In this document: piece after piece, positions 2,148 through 60,200 of the stretch | Layout of the letters: each line of letters begins with the position of its first letter | Position numbering within the stretch: position 1 is the first letter of the stretch | From: Candidatus Rokuibacteriota bacterium | GTDB taxonomy: Bacteria > Methylomirabilota > Methylomirabilia > Rokubacteriales > CSP1-6 | Assembly (NCBI GenBank): GCA_003220315.1 | Contig: QHSA01000133.1 | Span: 14,843-78,842 of the forward strand | Direction: 5' to 3' | DNA: 64,000 nucleotides | Made by a program: the position numbers and the translations under genes | The notes under the pieces: model-generated | Databases searched by the model: none | What the model was told of the DNA's origin: nothing | What the model saw: only the letters and a program-made list of their open reading frames with translations

Positions 2148-3296
2148 TCAGTCGTCGAGCAGCTCCTTGGCGATGATCAGCCGCTGGATCTGGTTCGTCC
2201 CCTCGTAGATCTGCATGATCTTCGCGTCCCGCATGAAGCGCTCGACGGGGTACTCGCGTGTGTAGCCGTAGCCCCCGAAGACCTGGATGGCGTCGGTCGC
2301 GACCTTCATCGCGGCGTCGCCGGCCCAGCACTTCGCCATCGACGCCTCGTACGTGTTGCCTCGGATCCCCGCGTCCACCTGACGGGCGGCGTGGTGGACC
2401 ATGAGGCGCGCGGCGTGGACCTGCATCGCCATGTCGGCGAGCATGAACTGGATACCCTGAAAGGCTGCGACCGCCCGCCCGAACTGGTGTCGCTCCCGGG
2501 CGTACGCCACCGCGGCGTCGAGCGCCGCCTGCGCGATGCCGACGGCCATCGCGCCGGTCGCCGGGCGCGTGACGTCGAGGGTCTCCATGGCGATCGTGAA
2601 TCCCTCGCCCTCCTCGCCGAGGCGGTTCGCGACCGGTACGGCGCAGTCGGTGAAGTGGAGCGCCACGGTGGGCGAGGCTCGGATGCCCATCTTCTTCTCC
2701 TTCTTACCCACGGCGAAGCCGGGCATGCCTCGCTCGACGAGGAACGCGGTGACGCCCTTCGCGCGCAGCTTCGGGTCGATCGTGGCGAAGACGACGATGA
2801 CGTCGGCGTGGTCGCCGTTGGTGCACCACTGCTTGGAGCCGTTCAGGACGTAGCGGTCACCCCTCCGCACCGCGGTCGTCCGGAGGCCCGCCGCGTCCGA
2901 GCCGGCGCCGGGCTCCGAGAGCGAGTACGCGGCGAGGAGCTCGCCCGTCGCCAGGCGCGGCAGGTACTTCGTCTTCTGCGCTTCGGTGCCGAAGCGGAGG
3001 ATCGGGAGCCCGCCGAGCGGCTGGTCGAGGTACTGGGTCGCCGTCGCCGCGCACGCCCACGCGATCTCCTCGCACACGAGCGCGAGCGCGAGGCACCCCG
3101 CATCGGTCCCGCCGTACCGCTCGGGCACCCAGATCCCGTAGAGCCCCGCGTCGATGAGCGCTCGGATCGAGTCCTCGGGGTACTCCTCGGCGTCGTCGTA
3201 CCGGGCCGCGTGCGGCGCCACGCGCTCACGCGCGATCGTGCGCGCGAGGTCACGGATCAGCCGCTGGTCCTCGGTCAGGTAGAAGGCGTCGTTCAC
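2148..3296 (-). CDS. Acyl-CoA dehydrogenase
   Basis: ACAD motifs ([23 protein letters not shown], [12 protein letters not shown]). Start set at GTG 3296 ([11 protein letters not shown]) preceded by GAGGGGGA; the upstream ORF-track extension is spurious. Confidence 0.9.
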
Positions 3297-3307
3297 GGGC
3301 GTCCCCC

Positions 3308-4483
3308 TCAGATGATCCGCTGGCGCCGGAGATCGACGAGCCGCTCCGGCGGGTACCCGAGCGTCTCGCCGTAGATCTTGTCGTTGTGCTCGCCGAGACG
3401 CGGCGGGAAAGTGAGCGACGGCGGGTCGCCGACCGGAGGCGCGGGCAGCGCGACGGTGAGGCCGGTGCGCGGGTCCCGGACGTGGACGAGCCGAGGAGCC
3501 ACCAGCGGGTCGGCGACCACATCGGCCAGCGTGTTGACCCGCGAGATCGGGACCCCCGCCTCGCGCAGGAGGGCCTGCGCCTCGGCGGTCGGGAGCCGCG
3601 CGACGCGCTCGCCCAGCTCCCGATGGAGCCGCCCCACATCGGCGATGCGCCCGGCGTTCGCGGCCCACTCGGGCCGGTCGAGCCCGGCGAACGCGCGGAG
3701 CTTCGCCAGCGCGGCCCACTGCGCGTCGTTGCCGACGGCGACGTACACGTAACCGTCGCGGGTCTGAAAGACCGCCACGGGGGCAAAGAATGGATGGATG
3801 GTCCCCGTCCGTGTGATCCGCTCGCCCAGGCTCGCCGACAGGAGGACCGGTGAGACCATCCAGGAGACCGCGCTTCGCAGCATCGAGACGTCGAGCCGCG
3901 CCCCCGTCCCCGTCACGGCCCGGTGGTAGAGCGCCCGCATGATCGCGCCATAGCCGTGCTCCGCGGCGCCGAGGTCCACCATCGGCAGCCCGAACACCAT
4001 GGGCGGGCCGTCGGGCGCGCCGGTGAGCTCCATGAACCCCGCGCGGGCCTGGAGGATCGGGTCGTACGCGGCCTCGTCGTGGTCGGGCCCGAAGCCGGTG
4101 ACGCCGAGCCAGATCAGGTCGGGCTTGACGGCCCGGAGCGTGGCGTCGTCGATGCCGAGCTTCGCGTAGCTCCGCGGGCGCTGGTTGGTGGCGAAGACGT
4201 CCACCCGGAGCGCGCGGACGAGCTCACGGAGGATCCGGCGCCCCTCGGCCTCGCCGAGGTTCAGGGTAACCGCTTCCTTGCCACAATTGTTCGGCAGGAA
4301 ATAGCTCCGCATGTCGGCCTCGCCCAGCACGTCACGGCCGACGAATCGGTTCGGGTCCGGGCGCCCGGCGTTCTCGACGCGGATCACGCGCGCGCCGTCG
4401 CATGCGAGCCGATAGGTGAGGAACGGCAGGACCGTCGCCTGCTCGAGCGAGAGGACCGTGACGCCCTCGAGGGCTCGCGTCAC
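3308..4483 (-). CDS. CoA-transferase family III (CaiB/BaiF-like)
   Basis: [17 protein letters not shown]...[11 protein letters not shown]-terminus typical of family III CoA transferases. GTG start 4483 overlaps the TGA of the upstream ligase gene (GTGA). Confidence 0.9.
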
Positions 4484-9344: not shown

Positions 9345-10505
9345 CTACTCCGACTTGAGCCAGTCGGTGAGCTGCTTGAAGCGGCCCCGCTCCACACGCA
9401 CCCAGACCGCCTGCTTTTGGGTCTCGTGGTCCGGGCCGATGGTGAGCGGCGGCAGGATCCCGCTCTCCCAGCGCTTGACGGACTGGAGGGCGGCGATCAA
9501 CGACTCGCGGGTCAGCCGGGCCCCCGCGCGCGTGGCGCCCTCCGCGAAGAGCATCGCGGCGAAGTAGCCCGCGAGGGAATACCGGTTGGGCTCGTTCCGC
9601 GGGAAGTAGTTCTGCATGTGCTCGCGGTAACGCCGCACGCCTGGCAGGTCCGAGGTGAGCGGGTCGGGCCAGAGCGACAGCCCCTCGACACCCTCGGCAG
9701 CGTCGCCGGCGAGCGAGAGATACCGCTCGTCGGTGAGCGGGCCGGTGGACACCATGAGCGTGTCGGTCCAGCCGATCTTCTGCCGCTCCCTGAGCGCCTG
9801 CGCGCCCGGGCCGGGTACGAGGACCAGGAAGGTCACCTCGGGCTTCGCGGTGTGGAGCTTGGCGATCTGGGCGCTCACGTCGGTGACGCCGCGCTTCACC
9901 GATTCGACCGCGAGCAGCCTGAGGCCGTGGCGCGCCAGGTCCTTCTCGAAGGCCGTGAGGAACGACTTGCCGTACTCGTCGTCCTGGTAAAGCGCGGCGA
10001 ACTTCCTGTACTTTCGCCGACCCACCAGATAGTCGATCATCATCCGTGACGAGCGGTCGCTCATCGTCATGCCCTGGAAGACCCAGTGCCGGCCGCGCGT
10101 GACGGTCGAGCTCTGGTACGGGAACAGGAGCGGGACACGGTTCTGCTCGAGGTACTCGAGCGTCGCCACGACCGGTGGGGCGCCCTGCGGGATGATGACC
10201 GCGAACACCTGGTCCTGCTCGACGAGCTTGCGTGTGTTTGCCACCGCGTCCTGCGGCTTGTAACCGTCGTCGTACCAGATCGTCCGCACCTTCCGGCCGT
10301 GGATGCCCCCGCCGTCGTTGACGGCCTTGAAGCCGAGATCCACCCCGAACTTCGTGATCTGCTCGCCCGTGAAGGCCAGCGGGCCCGAGAACGAGTTCGA
10401 GCCGCCGAGCAGGATCTCGGTGTCGGTGACGCCCTGCTCGGCGCGCGCCGGCGCCGCGACCATCACGACGAGGGCGAGCAGCGGAAGGAGCCATCCGGAT
10501 CTCAT
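9345..10505 (-). CDS. Branched-chain amino acid ABC transporter substrate-binding protein (paralog 2)
   Basis: Start ATG 10505 (MRSGWLLPLLALVVMVAAPARA), overlapped (ATGA) by the stop of the R1 mini-ORF; the ORF-track N-terminal extension is repeat-derived. Confidence 0.9.
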   Translation of the reverse strand: MRSGWLLPLLALVVMVAAPARAEQGVTDTEILLGGSNSFSGPLAFTGEQITKFGVDLGFKAVNDGGGIHGRKVRTIWYDDGYKPQDAVANTRKLVEQDQVFAVIIPQGAPPVVATLEYLEQNRVPLLFPYQSSTVTRGRHWVFQGMTMSDRSSRMMIDYLVGRRKYRKFAALYQDDEYGKSFLTAFEKDLARHGLRLLAVESVKRGVTDVSAQIAKLHTAKPEVTFLVLVPGPGAQALRERQKIGWTDTLMVSTGPLTDERYLSLAGDAAEGVEGLSLWPDPLTSDLPGVRRYREHMQNYFPRNEPNRYSLAGYFAAMLFAEGATRAGARLTRESLIAALQSVKRWESGILPPLTIGPDHETQKQAVWVRVERGRFKQLTDWLKSE

Positions 10506-10740
10506 GGTCGTTCTCCTTGTAGCGGGGTCCGCGAGCCCGGCGCCATCGGTGGGTGGCCTGAGACCAGGCGCGCCCCGGCTCCGGTCCCCCTGCCGCCGCT
10601 CATTCCAGTCCACGCCGCGAGCCCGGCGCCATCGGTGGGTGGCCTGAGACCAGGCGCGCCCCGGCTCCGGTCCCCCTGCCGCCGCTCATTCCAGTCCACG
10701 CCGCGAGCCCGGCGCCATCGGTGGGTGGCCTGCCCACCGT
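10502..10740 (-). repeat. R1-family tandem repeat (86-bp unit x ~2.35) forming chained mini-ORFs between livM and the SBP gene
   Basis: Units 10531-10616 and 10617-10702, plus a partial unit 10703-10732 that lies inside the livM 3' coding end. The livM TGA (10686-10688) overlaps ATG 10689 of a 28-codon mini-ORF (MSGGRGTGAGARLVSGHPPMAPGSRRGLE). Its TGA overlaps ATG 10603 of a 33-codon mini-ORF whose TGA (10502-10504) overlaps the SBP ATG 10505. Confidence 0.8.
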
Positions 10741-13014: not shown

Positions 13015-14120
13015 TGGATCGCCTTCCGCCACATCGGCGAGGCCCACCCGTCCCGGAGGAACGCAAGAATCTCGCGCCGGCTCAGGTCGCCGAGCCCCAG
13101 GTGCTCGAGCGCGCGGCCGCGGCCCGAGAGCTCGCGCCCGAGCAGCGCGCCGTACACGAGAAGGAGCCCCGTGATCGCGGGCGTCACCGCGCCCGCCGCC
13201 CGCGCGGCCGACTCGAGGAGCGCCAACCCGAGAACCGCGTCCTCGGTGACGTAGCGGTGCTCGAACGTGACGATCTCGCTCCAGAGGCCGCTCGCCACGA
13301 GTTTCGTCTTCGCCCCGGCGCCGTAGAGCCCCTCGGCCGCCCGCGTCTCGTCGTAGTACGTCGCGAGCTCGTAGTGGGGCGCCGCGTAGCCCCAGCCCCG
13401 GCGAGTCGCGACCCGCTCGGCGTCCACGGCGTCGATGAGCCGGCGCACGCTCGGCGTCGTGCCAGCCGCGTGGACGTCGAAGCTGCCACCGTCGATCGCG
13501 CCGGTATTCAGGAGAACGAGCGGGGGGTGGATCACGGGCCCGGCGTTGGTGAGCGCGACATCGAGGGAGTCCGCGCACGGGCGGACGGCCGGGAAGAGCT
13601 CGGCGAGCCGCGGCAAGACGCGCGGGCCCCGCGACGCGGGAAACACGCCGATCGGCAGGTTGGCGGCGCGCAGGGGCGCCTTGACGACCGCGGGCGCCGT
13701 CTTCCGCGTGAGATAGGGCAGCGTCCCGGTCTCGGCGAGGGCGAGCGGTAAGGGGCCGCCGGCGCGCGCAATCCCCCGCGCCATCGCGTAGCTACCGAGC
13801 GTTCCCGGTGTGAGCAGGATGATCTGTCGGTCGTTGAGACACGGCGCCAGGCGCTTGGCGAGCTCCTCGTGGCTCGTCGCGGGTAGCGGGACGATCAGGA
13901 CCTCCGCGCCCTCGACCGCCTCGCCGAGGTCGGTCGTGGCGCGCTCGAGCTGCGCCGTCCCGTGCCGCCCCTCGGCGTCGAGCGTGATCGTCGCGCGCTC
14001 CACGAGCGGGCCGAGCGCGTCCGCCGAGCGGCTCCAGAGCCTGACGCGGTGGCCGGCCAGCGCGAGATCGGCCGCCGTCGCGAAGCCACCATTGCCCGCG
14101 CCCAGGACTGCTAGCTTCAC
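13011..14120 (-). CDS. NAD/NADP-dependent octopine/nopaline (opine) dehydrogenase family oxidoreductase
   Basis: GTG 14120 gives MKLAVLGAGNGGFATAADLALAGHRV, a classic Rossmann N-terminus of the opine dehydrogenase family. The GTG is overlapped by the TGA of the R2 mini-ORF. Confidence 0.7.
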   Translation of the reverse strand: MKLAVLGAGNGGFATAADLALAGHRVRLWSRSADALGPLVERATITLDAEGRHGTAQLERATTDLGEAVEGAEVLIVPLPATSHEELAKRLAPCLNDRQIILLTPGTLGSYAMARGIARAGGPLPLALAETGTLPYLTRKTAPAVVKAPLRAANLPIGVFPASRGPRVLPRLAELFPAVRPCADSLDVALTNAGPVIHPPLVLLNTGAIDGGSFDVHAAGTTPSVRRLIDAVDAERVATRRGWGYAAPHYELATYYDETRAAEGLYGAGAKTKLVASGLWSEIVTFEHRYVTEDAVLGLALLESAARAAGAVTPAITGLLLVYGALLGRELSGRGRALEHLGLGDLSRREILAFLRDGWASPMWRKAIQ

Positions 14121-14228
14121 AGACTCGCCTCGCCTGTGGCTGCGGCTCGCACTGCCACGACGTTCATAAGCTCGCCTCGCACGGCGGGGCCCCAGCCCCA
14201 CGACGTGCTGCGGCTCGCACTGCCATCA
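14117..14228 (-). repeat. R2-family element forming two chained mini-ORFs (20 and 16 codons)
   Basis: The CoA-transferase TGA (14226-14228) overlaps ATG 14226 (TGATG). Mini-ORF1 MAVRAAARRGAGAPPCEASL ends with TGA 14164-14166 overlapping ATG 14167 of mini-ORF2 MNVVAVRAAATGEASL. Its TGA 14117-14119 overlaps the GTG 14120 of the next gene. Confidence 0.7.
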
Positions 14229-19995: not shown

Positions 19996-20378
19996 GTCTC
20001 CCTCGCCTCCTTCGTGAACGCGGCGACGATGTCCGGCAGCGGTGTGCCCATCGGGAACACGCGCGCGACGCCGAGCTTCCGGAGCTCCTCCACGTCGCGC
20101 GGCGGGATGATGCCGCCCACGACGACCCTGACCTCCCCGGCGCCGTGCGCCCGCAGCCCCTCGAGCACGCGGCGCGAGAGGAGCACGTGGGCGCCCGACA
20201 GCACCGAGAGCCCGACCACGTCTACGTCCTCCTGGATCGCCGCCCGCACGATCTCGTCCGGCGTCCGCTTGAGCCCCGAGTAGACGACCTCGACCCCCGC
20301 GTCGCGGAGCGCCTGCGCCACGACCTTCGCGCCGCGGTCGTGGCCGTCGAGCCCCGGCTTGGCGATCAGGACCTTCAC
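19992..20378 (-). CDS. Cobalamin (B12)-binding domain subunit of acyl-CoA mutase
   Basis: 128 aa; DGHDRG B12-binding motif; GTG start 20378 overlapped by the TGA of the R1 mini-ORF; its TGA overlaps the mutase ATG (ATGA). Confidence 0.9.
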   Translation of the reverse strand: MKVLIAKPGLDGHDRGAKVVAQALRDAGVEVVYSGLKRTPDEIVRAAIQEDVDVVGLSVLSGAHVLLSRRVLEGLRAHGAGEVRVVVGGIIPPRDVEELRKLGVARVFPMGTPLPDIVAAFTKEARET

Positions 20379-20652
20379 TGTAGCGAAGTCCGCGAGGCCG
20401 GCGCCATCGGTGGGTGGCCTGAGACCAGGCGCGACCCGGCTCCGGTCCCCATGTCGTGTCTCATTCCAACAGGGTCCGCGAGGCCGGCGCCAGCGGTGGG
20501 TGGCCGTCGGACTGACCGCCCTTCGAGCGCGGGCTTCGCCCGCGCAACCGATCCTGGGGGAGGCTCGGAGGGGGCCGTCGAGGCCCCCTTCGATGAGGTG
20601 GGTGGCCTGAGACCAGGCGCGACCCGGCTCCGGTCGTCCCGGCGCTATTCAT
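20375..20652 (-). repeat. R1-family element (two units, the distal one interrupted by a nested R3 element) forming 63- and 29-codon chained mini-ORFs
   Basis: ATG 20652 lies 2 codons before the metallophosphoesterase TAG (ATGAATAG). Mini-ORF1 reads through R1-partial, R3 and R1 to TGA 20461-20463, which overlaps ATG 20464 of mini-ORF2 (MRHDMGTGAGSRLVSGHPPMAPASRTSLQ). Its TGA 20375-20377 overlaps GTG 20378 of the B12 subunit. Confidence 0.75.
20496..20607. mobile_element. R3 MITE-like element (92 bp) with 10-bp direct target duplication GTGGGTGGCC, nested in R1
   Basis: Insert 20506-20597 flanked by GTGGGTGGCC at 20496-20505 and 20598-20607. Two internal hairpins (GCGCGGGC-TTC-GCCCGCGC; GGGGGCC-GTCGA-GGCCCCC). 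A near-identical copy (3 differences) sits at the same position of a diverged R1 at 27445-27556. Confidence 0.7.
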
Positions 20653-22645: not shown

Positions 22646-23604
22646 TGGTACGCAGCGTCCTCTCGCACCCGCCTGAGCTGCCGGAGCAGCGCACGGACCT
22701 TGGCGGTCTCGAACGTCTCGCGCCGGTCGCCGGCGTAGTCGAAGAACCCGCGCCCCGTCTTCGGGCCGAGCTCTCGCCTCGCGATCTTCTCCTCGACCAG
22801 GCGCGCCGGCTTGAAGCGGTCGTCACCGAGCGCGTCGGCGAGGAAGCGGCTCGCACGGTGGAGGATGTCCACGCCGCCCCAGTCGATGAACTCGAAGATC
22901 CCGACCTGCGCGTAACGGAAGCCCATCCCCGCCCTGAACGCCCGGTCCACGTCCTCGGGCGACGCGACGCCCTCCTCGACGAGGCGGACCGCCTCGTTCA
23001 TGAGCAACGCCTGTAGCCGCGGCCCGATGAACCCCGGCGAGTCGGCGCACCGCACGGGGACCTTCCCGAGCGCCTCGAGGACCTCGATGGCGCGGTCGAC
23101 GACGGCGGCCGTGGTCGCCTGGCCGGCGACGACCTCCACGAGCGGGACGATGTGGGCGGGGTTGAGCCAGTGCGCGACGAGGAAGCGCTCCGGACGCTCT
23201 ACCGCGTCGGCGAGGTGCCTGGGCGCGATCGTCGAGCTCGTCGAGGCGATGATCGCCCCGGCGCCGACGCGGGTCGAGAGGCGCCCCAGCACCTCGCGCT
23301 TGAGGTCGAGCAGCTCCGGCAGCGCCTCCTGCACGAAAGCGCACGCGTCGAGGCCGTCGAGCCCCGTGCGGTCCTCGATCCGGTCGAGCGCCGACGCGAC
23401 GTCGCCGCCCGCGATCACACCCTCCTCGGTCATGAGCCGGAGGTCGCGGGTGATCTCGCGCCGCGCGTCGGCGAAGACGGCGCGCCGCTCCTCGGGCGTG
23501 CGGGCCTTGACGTCGACGAGGAGGACACGGCGCCCGCCCAAGGCGAAGGCGAGCGCGATCTGGCGCCCGATCCTCCCGGGGCCGAGAACCGCGACTGTAT
23601 TCAT
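22642..23604 (-). CDS. 3-hydroxyacyl-CoA dehydrogenase (NAD-binding, HBD/FadB-type)
   Basis: MNTVAVLGPGRIGRQIALAFALGG Rossmann N-terminus; C-terminal 3HCDH dimerisation domain; ATG 23604 is the last start of the R2 tandem array. Confidence 0.9.
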   Translation of the reverse strand: MNTVAVLGPGRIGRQIALAFALGGRRVLLVDVKARTPEERRAVFADARREITRDLRLMTEEGVIAGGDVASALDRIEDRTGLDGLDACAFVQEALPELLDLKREVLGRLSTRVGAGAIIASTSSTIAPRHLADAVERPERFLVAHWLNPAHIVPLVEVVAGQATTAAVVDRAIEVLEALGKVPVRCADSPGFIGPRLQALLMNEAVRLVEEGVASPEDVDRAFRAGMGFRYAQVGIFEFIDWGGVDILHRASRFLADALGDDRFKPARLVEEKIARRELGPKTGRGFFDYAGDRRETFETAKVRALLRQLRRVREDAAYQ

Positions 23605-23868
23605 AGACTCGCCTCGCCGGCGGCTGCGGCTCGTACGACCACGTTCATAGACTCGCCTCGCCGGCGGCTGCGGCTCGTACGACCACGCTCATAGACTCGC
23701 CTCGCCGACGGCTGCGGCTCGTACGACCACGTTCATAGACTCGCCTCGCCGACGGCTGCGGCTCGTACGACCACGTTCATAGACTCGCCTCGCCGGCGGC
23801 TGCGGCTCGTACGACCACGTTCATAGACTCGCCTCGCCGACGGCTGCGGCTCGTACGACCACGTTCAC
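23602..23868 (-). repeat. R2-family 44-bp tandem array (6 ATG units plus 1 GTG unit), each unit a 15-codon mini-ORF
   Basis: Unit CATAGACTCGCCTCGCCG(G/A)CGGCTGCGGCTCGTACGACCACG(T/C)T at 44-bp period, with start codons at 23604, 23648, 23692, 23736, 23780, 23824 (ATG) and 23868 (GTG). On the minus strand each unit reads (M/V)NVVVRAAA(A/V)GEASL-TGA, with the TGA overlapping the next ATG (ATGA). The thiolase TGA (23865-23867) overlaps the first GTG; the last TGA overlaps the dehydrogenase ATG. Confidence 0.85.
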
Positions 23869-25034
23869 GCCGGTTCGCGCCCGTAAATCATCACGACGTG
23901 CTCGCCCATCCCGCTGTTGTTGTGCGTGAGCCCGATCGCCGCGCCGGGCACCTGGCGGGCGCCGGCCTCGTCGCGGAGCTGGACGAAGACCTCCGCCGCC
24001 TGGGCGACGCCGGTGGCGCCGAGCGGGTGACCGCATCCGATCAGCCCGCCGCGCGGGTTCACGACCACGTCGCCGCCGTAGTCGCCGCGCCCCGCGGCGA
24101 CGAACGCGCCCGCCTCGCCCTTGCCGCAGAAGCCGAGCTCCTCGCACGCAATGAGCTCCGCGATCGCGAAGCAGTCGTGTACCTCGGCGAGGTCGACCTC
24201 GCGCGGCGCGATGCCGGCCATCCGGTACGCGGCCTGCGCCGCACGCCTGAGCGCGGGCCACTGGGCGTAGTCCTCGTGGAGCGAGGTGAGCTGGAAGCCG
24301 TCCAGCGCCTGGCCCGTCCCTCGGATCCAGACCGGCTTGTCGGTCAGCCCGCGCGCCCGCTCCTCGCTCGCGAGGATCACCGCCGCGGCGCCGTCGGTGA
24401 TCGGCGAGCACATGAACAGGCGCAAGGGCGTCGCGATCATCCGCGAGCCGAGCACCTGGTCGAGCGTGGCGCCCTTGTTGAAGTGGGCGTTCGGGTTCTT
24501 GGCGGCATGGGTATGGTTTTTCACGCCGACCATCGCGAGCTGCTCCTCGGTCGTCCCGTACGCGGCCATGTGGCGCTGGGCCGCGAGCGCGAAACAGGGC
24601 GGCGCCGTGAGCCCGAAGGCCGCCTCCCACTCGCGGTCCACCCCGGTGCCCATGTTGAGGATCGCCTCCTCGCCCGTCGGCGCGTTGAGCTTCTCGACGC
24701 CGAGCACCATGACGAGGTCGGCGAGCCCCGCGGCGATGAAGGCGTACGCGTAGCGGATCGCGACGGTGCCCGAGGCGCACATGTGCTCGGTCCGCGCGCT
24801 GAGCGCGCTCGGCTTGATTCCGAGCGCCTCGGCGGCGAGCGAGGAAATATGGGACTGGAAGGCCGTGCGCTCCGGCATCACGGAGCCGACGACGAGACCC
24901 TCGACGTCCTTCGGCTTCACCGCAGGGATCGAGTCGAAGCACGCCTTGCCCGCCTCCCAGATGAGGTCGCGGTAGCTCGCCCGGCGCACGCCGAACTTCG
25001 AGACCCCCGCGCCGACCAGCGCGACTCGTCTCAT
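23865..25034 (-). CDS. Thiolase-like protein (SCP2-type thiolase / lipid-transfer protein family)
   Basis: 389 aa; MRRVALVGAGVSKFG N-terminus; active-site Cys region (EHMCASGT); C-terminal GCGHPLGATG. Confidence 0.9.
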   Translation of the reverse strand: MRRVALVGAGVSKFGVRRASYRDLIWEAGKACFDSIPAVKPKDVEGLVVGSVMPERTAFQSHISSLAAEALGIKPSALSARTEHMCASGTVAIRYAYAFIAAGLADLVMVLGVEKLNAPTGEEAILNMGTGVDREWEAAFGLTAPPCFALAAQRHMAAYGTTEEQLAMVGVKNHTHAAKNPNAHFNKGATLDQVLGSRMIATPLRLFMCSPITDGAAAVILASEERARGLTDKPVWIRGTGQALDGFQLTSLHEDYAQWPALRRAAQAAYRMAGIAPREVDLAEVHDCFAIAELIACEELGFCGKGEAGAFVAAGRGDYGGDVVVNPRGGLIGCGHPLGATGVAQAAEVFVQLRDEAGARQVPGAAIGLTHNNSGMGEHVVMIYGREPA

Positions 25035-26184: not shown

Positions 26185-27344
26185 CACGCGAACGCCTGAC
26201 CACGGTCCCAGTCGAGGTCGCGGTCGATCACGACGCGCAGGATCTCCGAGGTCCCGCCACCGGGCAAGAGGAAGCGCGCGTCACGGAAGTAGCGCTGGAT
26301 CGGGTACTCCATCGCGAGTCCGTACGAGGCGAAGATGCGCGCCGCCTCGTCCGTGACGCGCACCGCCATCTCCGACGCGAAGAGCTTCACCATCGCCGCC
26401 TCACGGGTGATCGCGCGTCCGGCGTCGAGCCGGGCCGCGGCCTGGTAGGTCATGAGCGTCGCCGCGTGGAGCCGGGTGAGCATGTCGGCGAGCTTGAAGC
26501 CGATCGCCTGGTGCTCGACGATCGGCTTCCCGAACGCGACCCGCTCCCGGGCGTAGGCGAGCGCGGCCGTGTACGCGGCGCGCGCGATCCCGACGGAGAT
26601 CGCCGCGGTCATCACCCGGATCTCCGAGAGGACGGACCCGATCTTCTCGACACCACCCGTTTCACCACCGAGGAGATACTCGGGAGGAACTTCCACGTCG
26701 TCGAGCCGGATCTCCCCCGTCACGGAACCACGCACCGCCATCTTGTCGATCGACTTCCCGAGCGCGATCCCGCGCATCGCCGAGCGGTCCAGGAGGAAGA
26801 GCGCGATGTTCTTCATGCCGCGCTCGGCAGAGGTCTTCGCCGCGACCGTCAGGACGTCGGCCACCGGCGCGTTGGTCACCCAGGTCTTGCCCCCGCGGAG
26901 CACCCAGCGGTCGCCGCGTCGCTCGGCGCGCGTGGTGATGTTGGCGACGTCGGAGCCGGCGCCGGGCTCGGTGAGCGCGAAGGTCGCGACCAGGTCGCCC
27001 CGGAGCGCGGGCACGAGGTACTTCCGGCGGAGCTCTTCGGTGCCGTACTTGTAGATGAAGTAGGTCCCCATCAGCGACTGCATGGCCACCGTCGCGGCCA
27101 CCGAGAGCGAGCCCCGGGCGAGCTCCTCGGCGAAGAGACAATAGGTGACCATGTCCGCGTCGGCGCCGCCGTACGCCGCCGGGTAGCGGAGACCGAGATA
27201 GCCGAGCTCGCCGAGGCGCTTGAACAGCGTCCACGGGAACTCCGCGCGCTCGTCGATCGCCTCTGCGGCCGGCACCACCTCGGCGTCGACGAGCCGCGCG
27301 ACCGCCTTGCGAAATTCTTCTTGCTCTGGCGTGAAGGCGATCAT
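26184..27344 (-). CDS. Acyl-CoA dehydrogenase
   Basis: ATG 27344 (MIAFTPEQEEF) overlapped by the TGA of the R1 mini-ORF; ACAD motifs throughout. Confidence 0.9.
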   Translation of the reverse strand: MIAFTPEQEEFRKAVARLVDAEVVPAAEAIDERAEFPWTLFKRLGELGYLGLRYPAAYGGADADMVTYCLFAEELARGSLSVAATVAMQSLMGTYFIYKYGTEELRRKYLVPALRGDLVATFALTEPGAGSDVANITTRAERRGDRWVLRGGKTWVTNAPVADVLTVAAKTSAERGMKNIALFLLDRSAMRGIALGKSIDKMAVRGSVTGEIRLDDVEVPPEYLLGGETGGVEKIGSVLSEIRVMTAAISVGIARAAYTAALAYARERVAFGKPIVEHQAIGFKLADMLTRLHAATLMTYQAAARLDAGRAITREAAMVKLFASEMAVRVTDEAARIFASYGLAMEYPIQRYFRDARFLLPGGGTSEILRVVIDRDLDWDRGQAFA

Positions 27345-27625
27345 TGTAACGGGGGCCGCGGGGCCGCCACACTCCGTGGGTGGCCTGAGACAAGGCGCGA
27401 CCCGGTTCCGTTCCGTAACGGGGGCCGCGGGGCCGCCACACTCCGTGGGTGGCCGTCGGACCGACCGCCCTTCGAGCGCGGGCTTCGCCCGCGCCACCGA
27501 TCCTGGGGGAGGCTCGGAGGGGGCCGTCGAGGCCCCCTTCGATGAGGTGGGGGGCCTGAGACGAGGTGCGACCCGGGCCCGTTCGGCACGCCGCCGCGTT
27601 TCATTCCACCGGGCGCGGCACTCAT
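27341..27625 (-). repeat. R1-family element (two units, the distal one carrying a nested R3) forming a 94-codon mini-ORF
   Basis: ATG 27625 overlaps the hyuB TGA (ATGA); the ORF reads through R1, R3 and R1 (…HLVSGPPPHRRGPRRPPPSLPQDRWRGRSPRSKGG…RLVSGHP…) to TGA 27341-27343, which overlaps the ACAD ATG 27344. Confidence 0.75.
27445..27556. mobile_element. R3 MITE-like element (92 bp) with 10-bp target duplication (GTGGGTGGCC / GTGGGGGGCC), nested in R1
   Basis: Insert 27455-27546; differs from the 20506-20597 copy at 3 positions, whereas the flanking R1 sequences differ extensively. Confidence 0.7.
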
Positions 27626-31487: not shown

Positions 31488-31567
31488 TATTGGTGGCCTG
31501 AGACGAGGTGCGCCCCGGCTCCGTTCCGCCCGCCGCTTCCCATTCCAGCGAGCCGCAAGGCCGGCAT
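31487..31567 (-). repeat. Single R1 unit forming a 26-codon mini-ORF between the GntR gene and hyuA
   Basis: ATG 31567 lies 1 nt after the GntR TAG (31569-31571); MPALRLAGMGSGGRNGAGAHLVSGHQ-TAA, with the TAA overlapping the hyuA ATG. Confidence 0.65.
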
Positions 31568-37319: not shown

Positions 37320-38593
37320 TCGAGTTCCTCGCGCTCCCGTTCCTCGCCTGCCTCGTGCTCACCGCGATCCACGTCTACCTCGGGCTCCACGTGCTCGCGC
37401 GTGGCGTCATCTTCGTGGACCTGGCGCTCGCCCAGACGGCGGCCCTCGGGATCACCGTCGCCCTCCTCGCGGGCCACGCGATCCAGAGCGACGCGGCGTA
37501 CTGGTACGCGCTCGTCTTCACACTGGCGGGCGCCGGGCTCTTCGCCGTGAGCCGGACACATCGCGGACGTGTTCCGCAGGAGGCCCTCATCGGTATCGTC
37601 TACGCGGTGTCGGCTGCGGCGGCCGTGCTCGTCGTGGATCGGGCCCCGCAGGGGAACGAGCACATCAAGCAGCTCCTGGTGGGAAGCATCCTGACGGTCA
37701 CGGGGGACGAGGTGCGCGCGCTCGCCCTCCTCTACGCCCTGATCGGCGCCATTCATTGGGTCGTGCGCCGCCCGCTCCTCCGCATCTCGTTCGACCCGAA
37801 CGGCGCCGCCGGGCGGCACGCGGTCCGCGCGTGGGACTTCGTTTTCTACGCCTCGTTCGGGCTGGTGGTGACCAGCTCGGTGCGAGTCGCGGGCGTGCTC
37901 CTCGTCTTCTCGTACCTCGTCGTGCCCGCGACGGTGGGGGCGTTGCTCACGGGCTCCGTGCGCGGCCGCCTCCTCCTCGGCTGGGCCGCGGGCGCCGGGG
38001 TGAGCGCCGCAGGGCTCGCGGCCTCCTACGCCTGGGACCTCCCGACCGGCGCCACCGTGGTCACGACCTTCGGCGCGTTGCTCGCCGTGGTCGGGCTGGC
38101 GCTCGCGGCGCGCGGGCTCGGCCGCGCGGTCCGGACGCGCGGCGCCTCGGCGCTCCGCTCGCTCGGCGCCGGCGCGTGCGCCCTCGTCGCGCTTGCCGGA
38201 CTCCTCGTGGCGCTCTTCCCGCGAATGGACCATGTCTGGCTCGACTGGATCGAGGCGCCCCTGCCCGTCGTCGAGCTCGCGTTCCTCACGCCGCGGGAGC
38301 GCGAGACGTACCGCGAGAGCCACGCGGCGATCGCGCAGGCCACCGCCGACCTCGCGCGGCTACGCGCGCTGCAGCAGGAGGTCCTGTGGGGCGCCCGAGC
38401 GATGCCCGAGGAGACGACGGAGCGGCTCAGGCAGTTCGTGGCGGGCCGGAGCGAGCTCACGGCTGGCGACCGGATGGTGCTACGCACCCTGCGGACCAGG
38501 GCCCGCGAGCGCCAGCGCTACTGGATCGGCGTCCCGTTGCTCCTCGCCGGTGCCGTCGGCGCCCTCGTCCTCGCGCGCGCCCGCCGCGTCTAA
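37316..38593 (+). CDS. Metal ABC transporter permease (ZnuB family) with ~140-aa C-terminal cytoplasmic extension
   Basis: GTGA overlap with the SBP gene; 8 predicted TM helices followed by an Arg/Glu-rich helical tail; no ATPase gene adjacent. Confidence 0.8.
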   Translation: MIEFLALPFLACLVLTAIHVYLGLHVLARGVIFVDLALAQTAALGITVALLAGHAIQSDAAYWYALVFTLAGAGLFAVSRTHRGRVPQEALIGIVYAVSAAAAVLVVDRAPQGNEHIKQLLVGSILTVTGDEVRALALLYALIGAIHWVVRRPLLRISFDPNGAAGRHAVRAWDFVFYASFGLVVTSSVRVAGVLLVFSYLVVPATVGALLTGSVRGRLLLGWAAGAGVSAAGLAASYAWDLPTGATVVTTFGALLAVVGLALAARGLGRAVRTRGASALRSLGAGACALVALAGLLVALFPRMDHVWLDWIEAPLPVVELAFLTPRERETYRESHAAIAQATADLARLRALQQEVLWGARAMPEETTERLRQFVAGRSELTAGDRMVLRTLRTRARERQRYWIGVPLLLAGAVGALVLARARRV

Positions 38594-38597
38594 CCCG

Positions 38598-38690
38598 TGC
38601 GTCGGAATCACCGCTGTTCGAGCGCCGGCTCCGCCGGCGCAACCGATCCGGGGGGAGGCATCGGAAGGGGGGCGAAGCCCCCCTCCGAGT
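38598..38690. repeat. R3-like hairpin element at convergent gene ends (probable bidirectional terminator)
   Basis: GTCGGAATCACCGCTGTTCGAGCGCCGGCTCCGCCGGCGCAACCGATCCGGGGGGAGGCATCGGAAGGGGGGCGAAGCCCCCCTCCGAG; same architecture as R3, with compensatory stem changes (GCGCCGGC/GCCGGCGC versus GCGCGGGC/GCCCGCGC). Confidence 0.6.
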
Positions 38691-38693
38691 TAC

Positions 38694-39548
38694 CTAGCCC
38701 GTGTAGGCGTAGAAGCCGCGGCCCGTCTTCCGTCCGAGGTGGCCCGCGATCACCATGCGCTTGAGAAGCGGCGGCGGCGCGTAGCGAGGCTCGCGGAACT
38801 CCTCGAACATCACCTCGGCGACGTACATCGCGGTGTCGAGCCCGACGAGGTCCAGGAGCGTGAACGGCCCCATGGGGTAGCCACAGCCGAGCTTCATCGC
38901 CGTGTCGATGTCCTCGAGCGAGGCGAGGCCGCTCTCGTAAAGCCGGACCGCGTCGAGCAGGTACGGCACGAGCAACCGATTCACGATGAACGCCGTCGAG
39001 TCCTTCGTCTGGACCGGGGTCTTGCCGACCGCGCGGACCCACTCGGTCGCCGTCGCGACCACCGCCTCGTCGGTCAGGATCGTCCGCGCCACCTCCACGA
39101 GCTTCATCAGCGGCACGGGGTTGAAGAAGTGGAGCCCGAGGACCTGGCGGGGGCGCGTGGTCGCCGCGGCCAGGGCCGTGACGTTGCACGACGAGGTGTT
39201 GGTCGCCAGGATCGCGTGGGGCGGGCAGATCCGGTCGAGCTTCGCAAAGGTCTCGTTCTTGAGCTGCTGGTTCTCCGTCATGGCCTCGACGACGAGGTCG
39301 CACCCCTTGAGGTCCTCGAGTCGCGGCGTGCCGCCGATGCGCGCGAGCGCGGCGTCTTTCGTGGCGGCGTCGAGCTTGCCCTTCGCCGCGAGCCCCTCGA
39401 AGACCTCACGGAGCCGGCTGAGGCCCCGCTTGACCAGCTCGGCACTCGCCTCGACGAAGAGCACGGGGAACCCCGCCTGGGCCGCGACCTGGGCGATGCC
39501 CGAGCCCATGAGACCACAGCCGATGACGCCGACGTTTTTGATGGTCAT
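38694..39548 (-). CDS. 3-hydroxybutyryl-CoA dehydrogenase
   Basis: MTIKNVGVIGCGLMGSGIAQVAA Rossmann N-terminus; full-length 3HCDH. Confidence 0.9.
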   Translation of the reverse strand: MTIKNVGVIGCGLMGSGIAQVAAQAGFPVLFVEASAELVKRGLSRLREVFEGLAAKGKLDAATKDAALARIGGTPRLEDLKGCDLVVEAMTENQQLKNETFAKLDRICPPHAILATNTSSCNVTALAAATTRPRQVLGLHFFNPVPLMKLVEVARTILTDEAVVATATEWVRAVGKTPVQTKDSTAFIVNRLLVPYLLDAVRLYESGLASLEDIDTAMKLGCGYPMGPFTLLDLVGLDTAMYVAEVMFEEFREPRYAPPPLLKRMVIAGHLGRKTGRGFYAYTG

Positions 39549-55360: not shown

Positions 55361-56052
55361 CGCTCAGGGAGTTCTTCACGGCCGCGGCTCCGCCACGCCA
55401 CGCGCTCGCCCGCCTGTTTCGGGGACTCGGGGGTCGCTCGCCACGGCTCGAACCGCTCGCCGATCGATTCCGCATTGAGGCGAGCGACCACGGCGTGACG
55501 CGCCTCCGACCGGGGCGGGGCCTCGGCGCGGCGTCCCCACGCGCCCGCGGCCACGCCGAGCAGGCGCGCGAGGAGCTCCGCGAATACCTCGCGGGCCGCC
55601 GGACGTTCTTTCGGGTCCCCCTGGACCTCGACGGGGTGCCCGAGTTCCAGGCCACGGTGCTGGCGGAGGCCGCGCGCATCCCGTTCGGCGAGGTCGTCGC
55701 GTACGCGACGCTCGCGCGGCGCATCGGCCACCCACGCGCCGCGCGCGCCGTCGGCAACGCCCTCGGCAGGAATCCGGTGCCCGTGATCGTCCCCTGCCAC
55801 CGGGTCGTCCGCGGGGACGGGAGCTGGGGGCACTACGCCTTCGGCCACGCGATGAAGACGTTCCTGCTCGGGCTCGAGCGCGCGACGCCGCTCCTCGTCG
55901 GCTGCGCGACGAGCCGGATCGTCTGCCGACGCGGCTGCGCGCACGAGCGGCGTGTCGCCGAGGGGAATCGCGTCGTCTTCGCCTCGCTCCGCGACGCGCG
56001 GAGCGTCGGCTACCGCCCCTGCCGCGTGTGCCGGCCGGCCCGCGTCGCGTGA
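55345..56052 (+). CDS. Methylated-DNA-protein-cysteine methyltransferase (Ogt) fused to a C-terminal Ada-type Cys4 zinc domain
   Basis: Overlaps the sigma gene by 16 nt (anti-sigma position). Ogt DNA-binding domain with PCHRVV active site. C-terminal CRRGC...GYRPCRVCRP matches the Ada N-terminal methylphosphotriester-repair zinc motif. Confidence 0.7.
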   Translation: MDLDLTLREFFTAAAPPRHALARLFRGLGGRSPRLEPLADRFRIEASDHGVTRLRPGRGLGAASPRARGHAEQAREELREYLAGRRTFFRVPLDLDGVPEFQATVLAEAARIPFGEVVAYATLARRIGHPRAARAVGNALGRNPVPVIVPCHRVVRGDGSWGHYAFGHAMKTFLLGLERATPLLVGCATSRIVCRRGCAHERRVAEGNRVVFASLRDARSVGYRPCRVCRPARVA

Positions 56053-56090
56053 TCGGCGGCTTGCCGTGATCGGCCGCGTGCTAGGAGCGT

Positions 56091-56220
56091 GTCGGAGAAA
56101 GGGCTGTCGACCGGGGTTCGAGCGCCGGCTTTGCCGGCGCACCGATTCCTCGGGGGTTCGCTCCCTCTCGGGAGCGCTCCCCCGGCCTCGGAGGGGGCCG
56201 TCGCGCCCTTAGGGCGCGCC
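56091..56220. repeat. R3-like hairpin element (extended variant)
   Basis: GTCGGAGAAAGGGCTGTCGACCGGGGTTCGAGCGCCGGCTTTGCCGGCGCACCGATTCC...CTCGGAGGGGGCCGTCGCGCCCTTAGGGCGCGCC; shares the TTCGAGCGCCGGC-loop-GCCGGCGC-ACCGAT core and GGAGGGGGCC hairpin with other R3 copies. Lies in frame with the downstream gene, giving a spurious N-terminal extension. Confidence 0.55.
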
Positions 56221-56250
56221 TGTGAAGTCGCCCCCGCCGACTCTGCTAGG

Positions 56251-57084
56251 ATGCCGACGATGACGGCCCGCGGCTCGCTCGTCTCGTTCGCCGTCGCGCT
56301 GCTCCTGGTCGGCGGCCCACGGCCGGCCGCCGCCCAGTACCCGGTCTTCGACGCCCACATCCACTATAGCCGCCCCGACTGGGACGCGTACCCGCCGGAG
56401 CGCGCGCTCGCCCTCCTCGCTCGGGCGGGTGTGCGTCGCGCGCTCGTGTCGAGCACGCCCGACGACGGCACGCTCAAGCTCTACGAGCGCGCGCCGACGG
56501 TGGTCGTGCCGTTCCTCCGGCCCTACCGCAGGCGCGAAGACATGGGCGGCTGGCACGCAGACGCGGGCGTTGCCGAATACGTGGAGGAGCGACTCAAGCG
56601 CGGTATCTACCGCGGCATCGGCGAGTTCCACCTCGGTGGCGCCGACGTGGACGCGCCCGTCGTCCGGCGGATCGCCGAGCTGGCGGCGGAGCGCGACCTG
56701 TTCCTGCACGCCCACGTGGACGCCGACACGATCGAGAAGCTCCTGGCGCGCTACCCGAAGGTCCGCTTCCTCTGGGCCCACGCGGGCATGTCGGCGGACG
56801 CCAGGACCGTCGGCCGGCTGCTCGACCGATTCCCGAAGCTCTGGGTGGAGCTGGCGCTCCGCAGCGACGTCGCGCCGGGCGGCCGGCTCGACCCCGAATG
56901 GCGCGCGCGCTTCCTGCGTCACGCCGATCGTTTCATGGTCGGGACCGACACGTGGGTGACTTCTCGCTGGGAGGCCGTCGAGTCCTCCACGCGGGACGTC
57001 CAGGAGTGGCTCGCCGAGCTCCCGGCGGAGGTCGCCGAGCAGATCGCGTGGAGGAACGGCGCGCGTCTCTTCCCGGCGCCTTAG
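56251..57084 (+). CDS. Amidohydrolase-2 family (TIM-barrel metal-dependent hydrolase), secreted
   Basis: Signal peptide; FDAHIHY metal motif; HAHVD and WAHAG motifs. Confidence 0.7.
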   Translation: MPTMTARGSLVSFAVALLLVGGPRPAAAQYPVFDAHIHYSRPDWDAYPPERALALLARAGVRRALVSSTPDDGTLKLYERAPTVVVPFLRPYRRREDMGGWHADAGVAEYVEERLKRGIYRGIGEFHLGGADVDAPVVRRIAELAAERDLFLHAHVDADTIEKLLARYPKVRFLWAHAGMSADARTVGRLLDRFPKLWVELALRSDVAPGGRLDPEWRARFLRHADRFMVGTDTWVTSRWEAVESSTRDVQEWLAELPAEVAEQIAWRNGARLFPAP

Positions 57085-59252: not shown

Positions 59253-60143
59253 GTGAACGCGCGCGACGTCGACGCGGTCCTCCAGGCGGTCCGCTTCGAG
59301 CTCTATCGGGAGAACGTCTCCGGCGCCCTCGAGCTGGCCGAGCGCGCTCACGCCGCCCATCCCGACCCCCGGTACGCCGAACAGGCGGCGCGGATCCGGT
59401 CGTGGCTCACGCACCTCGAGAGCCGCGAAGCCTATATCGCGGCCCAGGAGGCGCAGTACAGGCGGCTCCGCTGGCGGGTCGGGCTGAAGCTCCTCGAGCG
59501 GCGGATCCGGATCCTCCTCGGCCGGAAGACGCGCAAGATGATCGGGCGACGCGGGCGTGATCCCGAATTCCAGGAGCTCGAGCGCGAGGTCGCCAGCGTG
59601 CGGCCGCGGCGCGCGCTCGACGCCGGAAGCGGCGAGGGGGGCGTGGCGATGGCGCTGGGCGCCCGCCACCCCGACGTGCGCGTCGAGGGCGTCGAGGTGT
59701 CGGCGACGAACGTCAGGATCGCGCGGCAGCTCAACCGGTTCAAGAACGTCGACTTCCGCCCGGGCCTCGCCGAAGAGGTCCACCTCCTCTTTCCGGCCGC
59801 GTCGTTCGACCTCGTGTACTCGTTCGCCGTCCTCGAGCACGTGCGCGACGTGAACGCGACGGTGCGCGCGATCGAGACGGTGCTGCGTCCAGGCGGGCGC
59901 TTTGCGTTCGTCGTTCCCATGCACGAGCTCCGCGCGCGGGGCCCGATCCCCGACTATGCGCCGGTCCACGGCTACGCCGACCACTGTCGCGTCTTCACGG
60001 AGGCGGAGCTGCGCGCGCGCTTCGGCGGTCGGAAGGGTTTTCGACTGGTGAAGATCCCGGGAGCCTGGAAGCACGGCGAGCTCCCGGACTGCTTCGAGCC
60101 GATCGAGTTCGGCTCGTTCTTCGTGTCGTACGCGACGGATTAG
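59253..60143 (+). CDS. Class I SAM-dependent methyltransferase with ~100-aa N-terminal helical extension
   Basis: Motif I LDAGSGEGG; small-molecule MTase type (no DNA-MTase catalytic motif); GTG start. Confidence 0.8.
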   Translation: MNARDVDAVLQAVRFELYRENVSGALELAERAHAAHPDPRYAEQAARIRSWLTHLESREAYIAAQEAQYRRLRWRVGLKLLERRIRILLGRKTRKMIGRRGRDPEFQELEREVASVRPRRALDAGSGEGGVAMALGARHPDVRVEGVEVSATNVRIARQLNRFKNVDFRPGLAEEVHLLFPAASFDLVYSFAVLEHVRDVNATVRAIETVLRPGGRFAFVVPMHELRARGPIPDYAPVHGYADHCRVFTEAELRARFGGRKGFRLVKIPGAWKHGELPDCFEPIEFGSFFVSYATD

Positions 60144-60149
60144 TCGTCG

Positions 60150-60200
60150 GGTGGAGCGGCGCCGCTCCCCCCAACGCCCCCCACCAGATCAGAGGGGGCG
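60150..60200. repeat. Partial R3-like hairpin element at convergent gene ends, overlapping the 3' coding end of the flavoprotein gene
   Basis: GGAGCGGCGCCGCTCC palindrome, then GAGGGGGCG-AGG-CGCCCCCTC hairpin and CCGAGCCGGCGCTCGAC (reverse of the R3 core); the last ~15 codons of the TcuA-like gene lie in it. Confidence 0.5.

Follow-up and report, generated by a model that had tools for sequence, protein, structure and literature searches.

Comparison of a 64,000-nt stretch of DNA from a Candidatus Rokuibacteriota bacterium (assembly GCA_003220315.1, contig QHSA01000133.1, positions 14,843–78,842 of the forward strand; hereafter the window) with the corresponding regions of its relatives indicates that a short hairpin-rich sequence, which we refer to as R3, is probably a non-autonomous mobile element resembling transposable elements of the miniature inverted-repeat type (MITEs), and a member of a family spread through the Candidatus Rokubacteria (Methylomirabilota). 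Two features carry this conclusion. First, copies of R3 are present in some and absent from others of the orthologous sites of close relatives. Second, the family inserts with duplication of its target, which is 10 bp long at a site unrelated to GTGGGTGGCC, the 10-mer that flanks R3 where it lies within a second, tandem repeat, R1. The sequences used for comparison are metagenome contigs and loci of relatives, and are identified by L-numbers (L028, L136, L251 etc.).

A preliminary description of the window had reported two 92-bp inserts flanked by direct repeats within two copies of R1, and both are present at the positions it gave (Table 1). The inserts are identical at 90 of 92 positions, and thus differ at two rather than the three reported. 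The flanking repeats are GTGGGTGGCC on both sides at locus 1, and GTGGGTGGCC on the left and GTGGGGGGCC on the right at locus 2; the right copy at locus 2 is an exact GTGGGTGGCC in the strain variants L122, L189 and L235, so that the duplication is exact on both sides there. Beyond the duplications the R1 sequences of the two loci are indeed diverged as claimed, with 19 of 30 nt identical on the left and 24 of 30 on the right (63–80%). At each locus two R1 units stand in tandem, of which the one is empty and the other holds R3, and the two units are nearly identical within a locus. Allowing for up to one mismatch, the 10-mer occurs 15 times in the window as against 6.1 expected, and none of 100 shuffles reached 15.

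The order of parts in R3 copy 1 is a 5′ module (GTCGGACTGACCGCCC), hairpin 1 (GCGCGGGC-UUC-GCCCGCGC), a G-box (GGGGGAGG), hairpin 2 (UCGGAGGGGGCC-GUCGA-GGCCCCCUUCGA) and the tail TGAG. The two hairpins are stable, as had been described, with a fold energy of −54.1 kcal/mol (z = −3.2) for the plus strand; that of the minus strand is −50.4 kcal/mol (z = −2.4). Loci 1 and 2 both belong to minus-strand operons, and the predicted mRNA would therefore carry the reverse complement of R3. (An argument for the plus strand from a UNCG tetraloop was dropped, the loop of hairpin 1 being in fact of 3 nt: UUC, UUU or UCC.) Across the four copies numbered in Table 1 the element ranges from 92 to 155 bp, with no capacity to encode a transposase. 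There is no match to Rfam at the gathering thresholds anywhere in the window, and only chance-level matches at E ≤ 10 around locus 1.

Insertion is most directly apparent at the third and fourth copies, which lie outside R1 and were not part of the preliminary description, and for which relatives with empty sites are available. Copy 3 lies between convergent genes coding for an ABC-3 permease and a 3-hydroxybutyryl-CoA dehydrogenase (Hbd). In L239–L242, in which the Hbd protein is 94% identical, these two genes overlap by 4 nt, reading ...TACACGGGCTAGCCGCAGCGG..., and there is no R3, while the reverse-complemented window reads ...TACACGGGCTAG, then the element (GTAACTCGGAGG...ATTCCGACG), and then CACGGGTTAGACGCGGCGG.... 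Copy 3 is an insertion of 94 bp that has duplicated the 10 bp CACGGGCTAG, the two copies being identical at 9 of 10 positions, with a C-to-T change in one that still leaves a stop codon; the junction is empty in all of L239–L246. Copy 4, at the junction of an Ada-like and an amidohydrolase gene, is absent from L253–L255, where the empty site is ATAGGATGCC or ATAGGATCCC in the context ...CGTGATAGGATGCCGGCGATGACGG...; the window reads ...CGTG CTAGGAGCGT, followed by 155 bp, CTAGGATGCC and GACGATGACGG..., with CTAGGA at both ends.

Table 1. Locations of R3-family copies, their flanking repeats and the associated R1 arrays in the window.
Feature	Position	Strand	Remarks
R1 array, locus 1, host of R3 copy 1	20375-20652	-	Two predicted mini-ORFs
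Target duplication, left, locus 1	20496-20505	+	GTGGGTGGCC
R3 copy 1, 92 bp	20506-20597	+	Covariance model, 82.5 bits
Target duplication, right, locus 1	20598-20607	+	GTGGGTGGCC
R1 array, locus 2, host of R3 copy 2	27341-27625	-	One predicted 94-aa ORF, 27625 to 27341
Target duplication, left, locus 2	27445-27454	+	GTGGGTGGCC
R3 copy 2, 92 bp	27455-27546	+	90/92 identical to copy 1; covariance model, 80 bits
Target duplication, right, locus 2	27547-27556	+	Reads GTGGGGGGCC in the window
R1 array without R3, paralogous empty R1	10502-10730	-	2.3 units of 86 bp; each a 29-aa mini-ORF, ATGA overlaps
Target duplication, left, R3 copy 3	38590-38599	+	CTAACCCGTG; contains TAA stop of ABC-3 permease gene
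R3 copy 3, 94 bp, between convergent genes	38600-38693	+	82.3 bits
Target duplication, right, R3 copy 3	38694-38703	+	CTAGCCCGTG; contains minus-strand stop codon of Hbd gene
Flank repeat, left, R3 copy 4	56081-56090	+	CTAGGAGCGT; first 6 nt match right repeat
R3 copy 4, 155 bp, variant with extra hairpins	56091-56245	+	36.7 bits
Flank repeat, right, R3 copy 4	56246-56255	+	CTAGGATGCC
Distant R3-like two-hairpin element	60147-60215	-	28.1 bits

The surroundings of copy 4 have some features of their own. The last four nucleotides of its left repeat, GCGT, match a left-flank consensus, CTAGGAGCGY, found at unrelated loci, and in full-length copies the 10 nt upstream of GTCGGAG are alike at unrelated loci of different genomes (L010, L035, L050, L077, L084 and window positions 56081–56090). 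This consensus consists of a stop codon followed by the Shine-Dalgarno-like AGGAG, and could represent a preferred target, a 5′ extension of a subfamily, or conversion between copies. Just upstream of copy 4 there is also a 17-bp tandem duplication (56050–56079; GTGATCGGCGGCTTGCC / GTGATCGGCCGCGTGC) that is absent from the empty sites of L253–L255.

R3 is not confined to this contig. When the hairpin 1 pattern was scanned against prokaryotic genomes, one for each species, at least 118 stretches were identified, and among the matches listed nearly all are in metagenome-assembled genomes of Candidatus Rokubacteria/Methylomirabilota; the acyl-CoA dehydrogenase encoded in the window is itself 100% identical to a protein from Candidatus Rokubacteria bacterium 13_1_20CM_4_70_14. 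A covariance model built on 56 simple copies finds four or five family members in the 64 kb of the window. The consensus starts with an optional 5′ module (GTCGGAGTAACCGCCG), TTCGA and hairpin 1 (GCGCSGGC, a 3-nt loop and GCCSGCGC), and continues with AAYC, a short variable linker, the G-box GGGGGAGG and hairpin 2 (UCGGA(A)GGGGSC, a loop and GSCCCCYUCCGA). A typical element is 92–94 bp long, with a 5′ module beginning (C)GTCGGA, a hairpin 2 ending in TYCGA and a tail of 3–5 nt, and some copies have extra hairpins between or within the modules. The pairing of both hairpins is supported by covariation: pair 10–20 is C-G in 33 sequences, G-C in 23 and unpaired in none, pair 54–82 is U-A in 51 and C-G in 4, and 94% of cells are paired, as against 44–51% when the 3′ partners are slid.

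The family also has a consistent position relative to genes, assigned here through codon-position GC. At the right (TCCGA) end of R3 the neighboring gene runs on the opposite strand in 49 instances, as against seven on the same strand, and for 37 of the 49 its stop codon is within 0–8 nt of the end of the element. The 38 assigned contexts comprise 17 co-directional (−,−), 16 convergent and five co-directional (+,+) arrangements, and none that is divergent. The usual order is therefore a gene, its stop codon, a few bases, and then the reverse complement of R3, which favors the reverse complement as the transcribed strand; since loci 1 and 2 lie in minus-strand operons, R3 is there oriented to its upstream gene in the way usual for the family. 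The distant element at 60147–60215, with a GGGGGGAGCGGCGCCGCTCC-type hairpin, begins a few bases past the TAG stop (60141–60143) of a methyltransferase gene. Variants resembling it are present in L025, L054 and L092, and a lone hairpin-1-like sequence (TTCCAGCGCGGGCTCGGCCCGCGG; L112, 2221–2245) where locus 1 has its orthologous counterpart, upstream of the gene for a B12-binding subunit, may be a remnant of the R3 family.

The host of copies 1 and 2, R1, is a repeat of a different kind. Its tandem units of 69, 84, 86 or 135 bp are read on the minus strand as mini-ORFs (small open reading frames) with the consensus peptide ...GAGSRLVSGHPP..., linked to one another and to the flanking genes by ATGA, GTGA or TAATG overlaps. 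At locus 1 the first mini-ORF (20652 to 20461) runs through R3 and is joined by ATGA to the second (20464 to 20375), the TGA of which overlaps the GTG start (GTGA) of the gene for a B12-binding methylmalonyl-CoA mutase subunit. At locus 2 the ATG of the single ORF overlaps the TGA of a hydantoinase B gene, and its own TGA overlaps the ATG of the acyl-CoA dehydrogenase gene. A further R1 sequence is present at 31490–31560. R1 is abundant in soil metagenome contigs of this lineage (L119–L238), with at least 120 stretches found by scanning metagenomes with its core, and the sequence TCA[TC] (which reads on the complementary strand as a TGA stop overlapped by an ATG or GTG start) directly precedes the head of R1 in 29 of 56 distinct loci. 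Folding of the R1 alignment yields no more than a modest hairpin, in which the 10-mer pairs with the right arm, and the constraint on R1 may be either on its coding sequence or on its RNA.

These are properties of the mycobacterial interspersed repetitive units (MIRUs), which have a unit length of 40–100 bp, ORFs that overlap the ends of adjacent genes, and tetranucleotide direct repeats at filled as compared with empty sites (PMC3184786, section 9, citing Supply 1997). Like MIRUs, R1 forms tandem intercistronic units within an operon, with ORFs overlapping the flanking stops and starts, and is inserted at an ATGA overlap with ATGA or GTGA kept at both ends; the array in the window has ATGA at both ends where L251 and L252 have a bare ATGA overlap. 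R1 differs from MIRUs in being from another phylum and unrelated in sequence, and in having nested inserts within its 10-mer. R3 and its duplication together add 102 bp, or 34 codons, with no stop codon among them when translated, so that the coupled reading frame of R1 is kept, and this preservation of frame would explain why R3 insertions in R1 are tolerated and persist.

A second family of mini-ORF repeats is present in the window at 23600–23907 and 14116–14159, as 44-bp units that each encode MNVVVRAAA(V/A)GEASL and a stop codon, with ATGA overlaps. The array begins on a GTGA at the stop of its upstream gene and ends on the ATG of a 3-hydroxyacyl-CoA dehydrogenase gene, and in L028 an R3-family copy occupies the place of the array at the orthologous junction. 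The R1/R3 array of locus 1 is separated from the next gene by one for a YfcE-like metallophosphoesterase (PF12850; 20645–21115) that is absent from the syntenic region of L028, and the junction has thus been rearranged in one of the lineages.

The relatives reveal the order in which R1 and R3 arrived. At locus 2, L251 and L252 (dehydrogenase 89–90% identical) have neither repeat, and the hydantoinase B stop and the dehydrogenase start simply overlap there; L247 has one partial R1 unit and L248–L250 have two units, all with the 10-mer intact and without R3. For locus 1 the relative in question is L028 (about 80% identical in DNA), in which the left arm of R1 and the 10-mer are found without R3. 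R1 was therefore in place at both loci before R3 arrived. The preliminary description had named two outcomes that would speak against independent insertions, namely that the other R1 copies all carry R3 with identical flanks, or that no further R3 has a duplication like this one, and neither is what is found. Only 10 of 157 R1 core matches (those listed together with the window) carry R3, all ten being orthologues of loci 1 and 2, and R1 is absent from 118 more distant Rokubacteria loci, save for the remnant in L028. A fuzzy search also identified a third composite at a different locus, in L136, in which 84-bp R1 units are followed by GTGGGTGGCC, R3 and CTGGGTGGCC-TGAGAC; this R3 is identical to the window copies at 87–89 of 92 positions, and lies just past the stop codon of an unrelated gene. 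In all three composites the sequence outside the 10-mer matches the neighboring R1 unit of the same locus and not the other composites. This arrangement is most economically read as independent transposition into three R1 copies at a hotspot, the R1 10-mer.

The insertions are not, however, as strictly site-specific as had been proposed. Three distinct targets are known for R3 (GTGGGTGGCC, CTAGCCCGTG and ATAGGATGCC), with only a loose common pattern, and the presence of other copies in CTAGCCCGTG and (A/C)TAGGATGCC makes the R1 10-mer a preferred location and not an obligatory one. The 10-mer is the 5′ arm, paired with the right arm of R1, in a small hairpin predicted for that repeat, and R3 is inserted between this 5′ arm and the loop. 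A different insert of about 48 nt, 'R4' (AGTGCGAAGCCGCAGCGCGTCCGACGCGYGAGGCGAGCCTGCGTGAGTC), breaks the same 10-mer between GGTGGG and GGCC with no clean 10-bp duplication (L218, 7186–7233 and 7321–7368; L123, 7846–7893; also L139, L144, L174, L220, L224 and L228), and the 10-mer thus seems to be a general weak point of R1. Strains vary in other ways at loci 1 and 2: the number of units in the array is one or two (L189, L235), L189 having a single composite unit and no empty one, R3 is shortened by an internal deletion in L210, and L222 has an additional partial R1 unit.

How well R3 conforms to a MITE can be judged against Correia/NEMIS, BOX, RUP, SPRITE, ERIC, QMITE and similar small repeats (defined in PMC3184786). 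It shares with these a size below 200 bp, a lack of coding capacity, multiple dispersed and mostly intergenic copies, stable stem-loops, target-site duplications (10 bp at loci 1 and 2, L136 and copy 3, and at least 6 bp at copy 4) and orthologous sites both filled and empty; the nesting of R3 in R1 also has a parallel in the pneumococcal BOX, RUP and SPRITE elements, which cluster and insert into one another (PMC10969869, section 3.3). Unlike them, it has no convincing terminal inverted repeats, its conserved parts being the two internal GC hairpins and the G-box, its duplication is 10 bp long, it has no known parent insertion sequence (IS), and the range of the family is a phylum and not a genus. 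The designation as MITE-like in the preliminary description therefore holds for a small, non-coding, multi-copy element with a 10-bp duplication (as the empty site of copy 3 attests) and falls short for clear inverted repeats and a parent IS.

Several points weigh against the interpretation of R3 as a mobile element. First, an autonomous partner was not found. As the preliminary description had stated, there is no transposase in the window (no transposase or RAYT domain among about 57 ORFs compared with Pfam at E ≤ 1e-5, nine of which have no match at all), and a search with the R3 5′ module without hairpin 1 found no longer element sharing the R3 5′ end in 1.78 Mb of related loci, with only chance coding matches. 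Second, the terminal inverted repeats are weak. The inverted similarity TTCGAG...CTTCGA reported earlier exists only in part, as about 5 nt (TCGGA/TTCGA, or TCGGA/TYCGA across the window copies) that are subterminal, and the best inverted termini, GTCGGAG/CTCCGAC, occur in some members of the family. Third, the repeat at copy 4 is certain for 6 nt, its left copy departing from the right one in the final 4 nt (GCGT). Fourth, a geometry-constrained permutation test of flank repeats across the family finds them at the level of chance for 98 copies without the 5′ module (mean 4.70 as against 4.70 for the null, p = 0.64) and not significant as a group for 13 copies with it, composites excluded (p = 0.27); an unconstrained comparison gives a weak signal (p about 0.001–0.004) driven by a few copies. 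Duplications are thus visible for young copies only, and it is the orthologous empty sites that serve as evidence. Fifth, the comparison sequences are metagenome contigs from several related populations and not one closed genome, and transcription of R3 and translation of the R1 mini-ORFs are predictions from sequence alone. Finally, three insertions on one 10-mer could also stem from recombination between R1 copies at the 10-mer.

This last possibility amounts to a single entry of R3 into R1, after which the composite spread by gene conversion or short-homology recombination at GTGGGTGGCC(TGAGAC), or along with the dispersal of R1, so that the identical target reflects homology. It would account for three composites that have one 10-mer and one orientation in common and an almost identical R3 (87–90 of 92 positions), and R1 arrays do rearrange among strains (L189, L235, L222 and L210). 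Between loci, the 10-mer is the only identical sequence beside R3, together with TGAGAC on the right, and these 10–16 bases are very short for homologous recombination. On either side of the insert, each of the three loci has flanks of its own as far as the 10-mer. The locus-specific substitutions in R3 are stable across strains, arguing against ongoing homogenization between loci, and as the family makes 10-bp duplications at an unrelated target, a second mechanism is not needed. We therefore consider a single entry unlikely, and independent insertion, as first suggested, stands as the most economical interpretation, though it is unproven against recombination at the shared 10-mer. Another model, which takes the composite as the ancestral state and derives the empty R1 units from it through deletions between 10-mers, was rejected, because R3 is about 97% identical between loci but the R1 flanks only 63–80%, and because relatives have R1 without R3.

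A long element in L086 that is bounded by R3 halves was considered as a possible parent of R3 and rejected, as it corresponds to an IS110-family insertion into R3. This element of about 1.54 kb (2756–4296; PF01548, E = 3.7e-34) lies inside an R3 copy exactly between AATCGATCC and GGGGGGAGG, and the orthologous R3 copies in L146 and L147 are uninterrupted.

A different proposition is that R3 is mainly a structural element selected by the host, acting as a 3′-end hairpin, terminator or mRNA stabilizer in the manner of the repetitive extragenic palindromes (REPs), with incidental flank repeats. The core is conserved across the phylum with compensatory changes, folding is stable on both strands, and the element sits 0–8 nt past stop codons with 0 of 38 contexts divergent; Liang, Rudd and Deutscher (2015) reportedly found REPs at distances of up to 15 nt from stop codons. 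Like REPs, the mosaic elements (BIMEs) that contain them and the REPINs, the R3 copies are GC-rich extragenic palindromes at high copy number that follow genes, form mosaics with other repeats and can act as a landing site for an IS110-family element (L086), as REPs do for the IS110-family ISPpu9 (PMC12288879). However, REPs are single palindromes of 20–40 bp tagged with GTAG or CGTC and typically in inverted pairs, and neither REPs nor REPINs make target duplications (PMC3733652, PMC3116915), in contrast to a 92-bp unit with two different hairpins in fixed order and a 10-bp duplication. The 5′ ends of R3 copies 1–3 do carry a REP-tag-like CGTC, but the architecture differs (PMC3733652), and in contrast to REPIN-RAYT systems no RAYT/Y1_Tnp match is present among the window ORFs. 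There is also no T-run (U-tract) past either hairpin in either orientation, as an intrinsic terminator would have, and the orthologous empty sites with a clean 10-bp duplication are insertion events. A role for the host may coexist with mobility, but it leaves the insertions unexplained, and as the principal account of R3 it is distinctly improbable.

Least plausible by far is the origin implied by the IS200/IS605 TnpA/TnpB partner suggested in the preliminary description, namely that R3 is a palindrome-associated derivative moved as single-stranded DNA by TnpA; it shares with such elements subterminal hairpins near both ends and the lack of proper terminal inverted repeats, but IS200/IS605 elements insert 3′ of a 4–5 nt target with no target duplication, whereas R3 duplicates 10 bp, and there is no Y1 transposase domain among the window ORFs.

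If R3 is a mobile element, its movement could be envisaged as follows. A transposase encoded elsewhere in the genome would recognize the structured ends of R3 and make cuts staggered by 10 bp. In this lineage R3 would have entered GTGGGTGGCC at least three times, the 10-mer being a preferred but not obligatory target. R1 would be a MIRU-like intercistronic repeat, read on the minus strand as mini-ORFs overlapping the starts and stops of the flanking genes, and as R3 with its duplication would add 34 codons without a stop, the coupled frame would survive and insertions would be tolerated. Elsewhere, for family members located 0–8 nt past a stop codon, the reverse complement may act as a 3′-end hairpin, a stabilizer or a weak terminator. 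A broader and rather speculative extension, which we regard as possible but not probable, is that the transposase recognizes hairpin ends instead of inverted repeats, cuts with a 10-bp stagger and has a preference for the junction of arm and loop in the hairpin of another repeat, and that R3, R1 and the 44-bp array are Rokubacteria-wide intercistronic mobile modules, kept since they would preserve or tune translational coupling and mRNA 3′ ends, with only frame-preserving insertions surviving inside them.

The Rokubacteria, which are common in soil, have not been cultured and are known from metagenomes only, and a full-text literature search turned up no account of repeats in this group, nor of the R3 family. 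The kind of element is an ordinary, MITE-like one, and the family is spread across an uncultured phylum. The coupling of the R1 mini-ORFs and the placement of the R3 family after stop codons are both features that the preliminary description had not seen, and what is more out of the ordinary here is the R1 mini-ORF repeats, with a nesting that preserves their frame. A repeat that occurs throughout a phylum with its two-hairpin core conserved breaks assemblies repeatedly and offers a marker for strain typing, and the filled and empty sites fix the exact boundaries of R3 and the length of its duplication, as needed in seeking its transposase. The nesting of R3 in MIRU-like coupled mini-ORFs shows the kind of insertion that an operon junction can tolerate, and R1 and the 44-bp array extend MIRU-type elements to a second phylum, unrelated to the mycobacteria.

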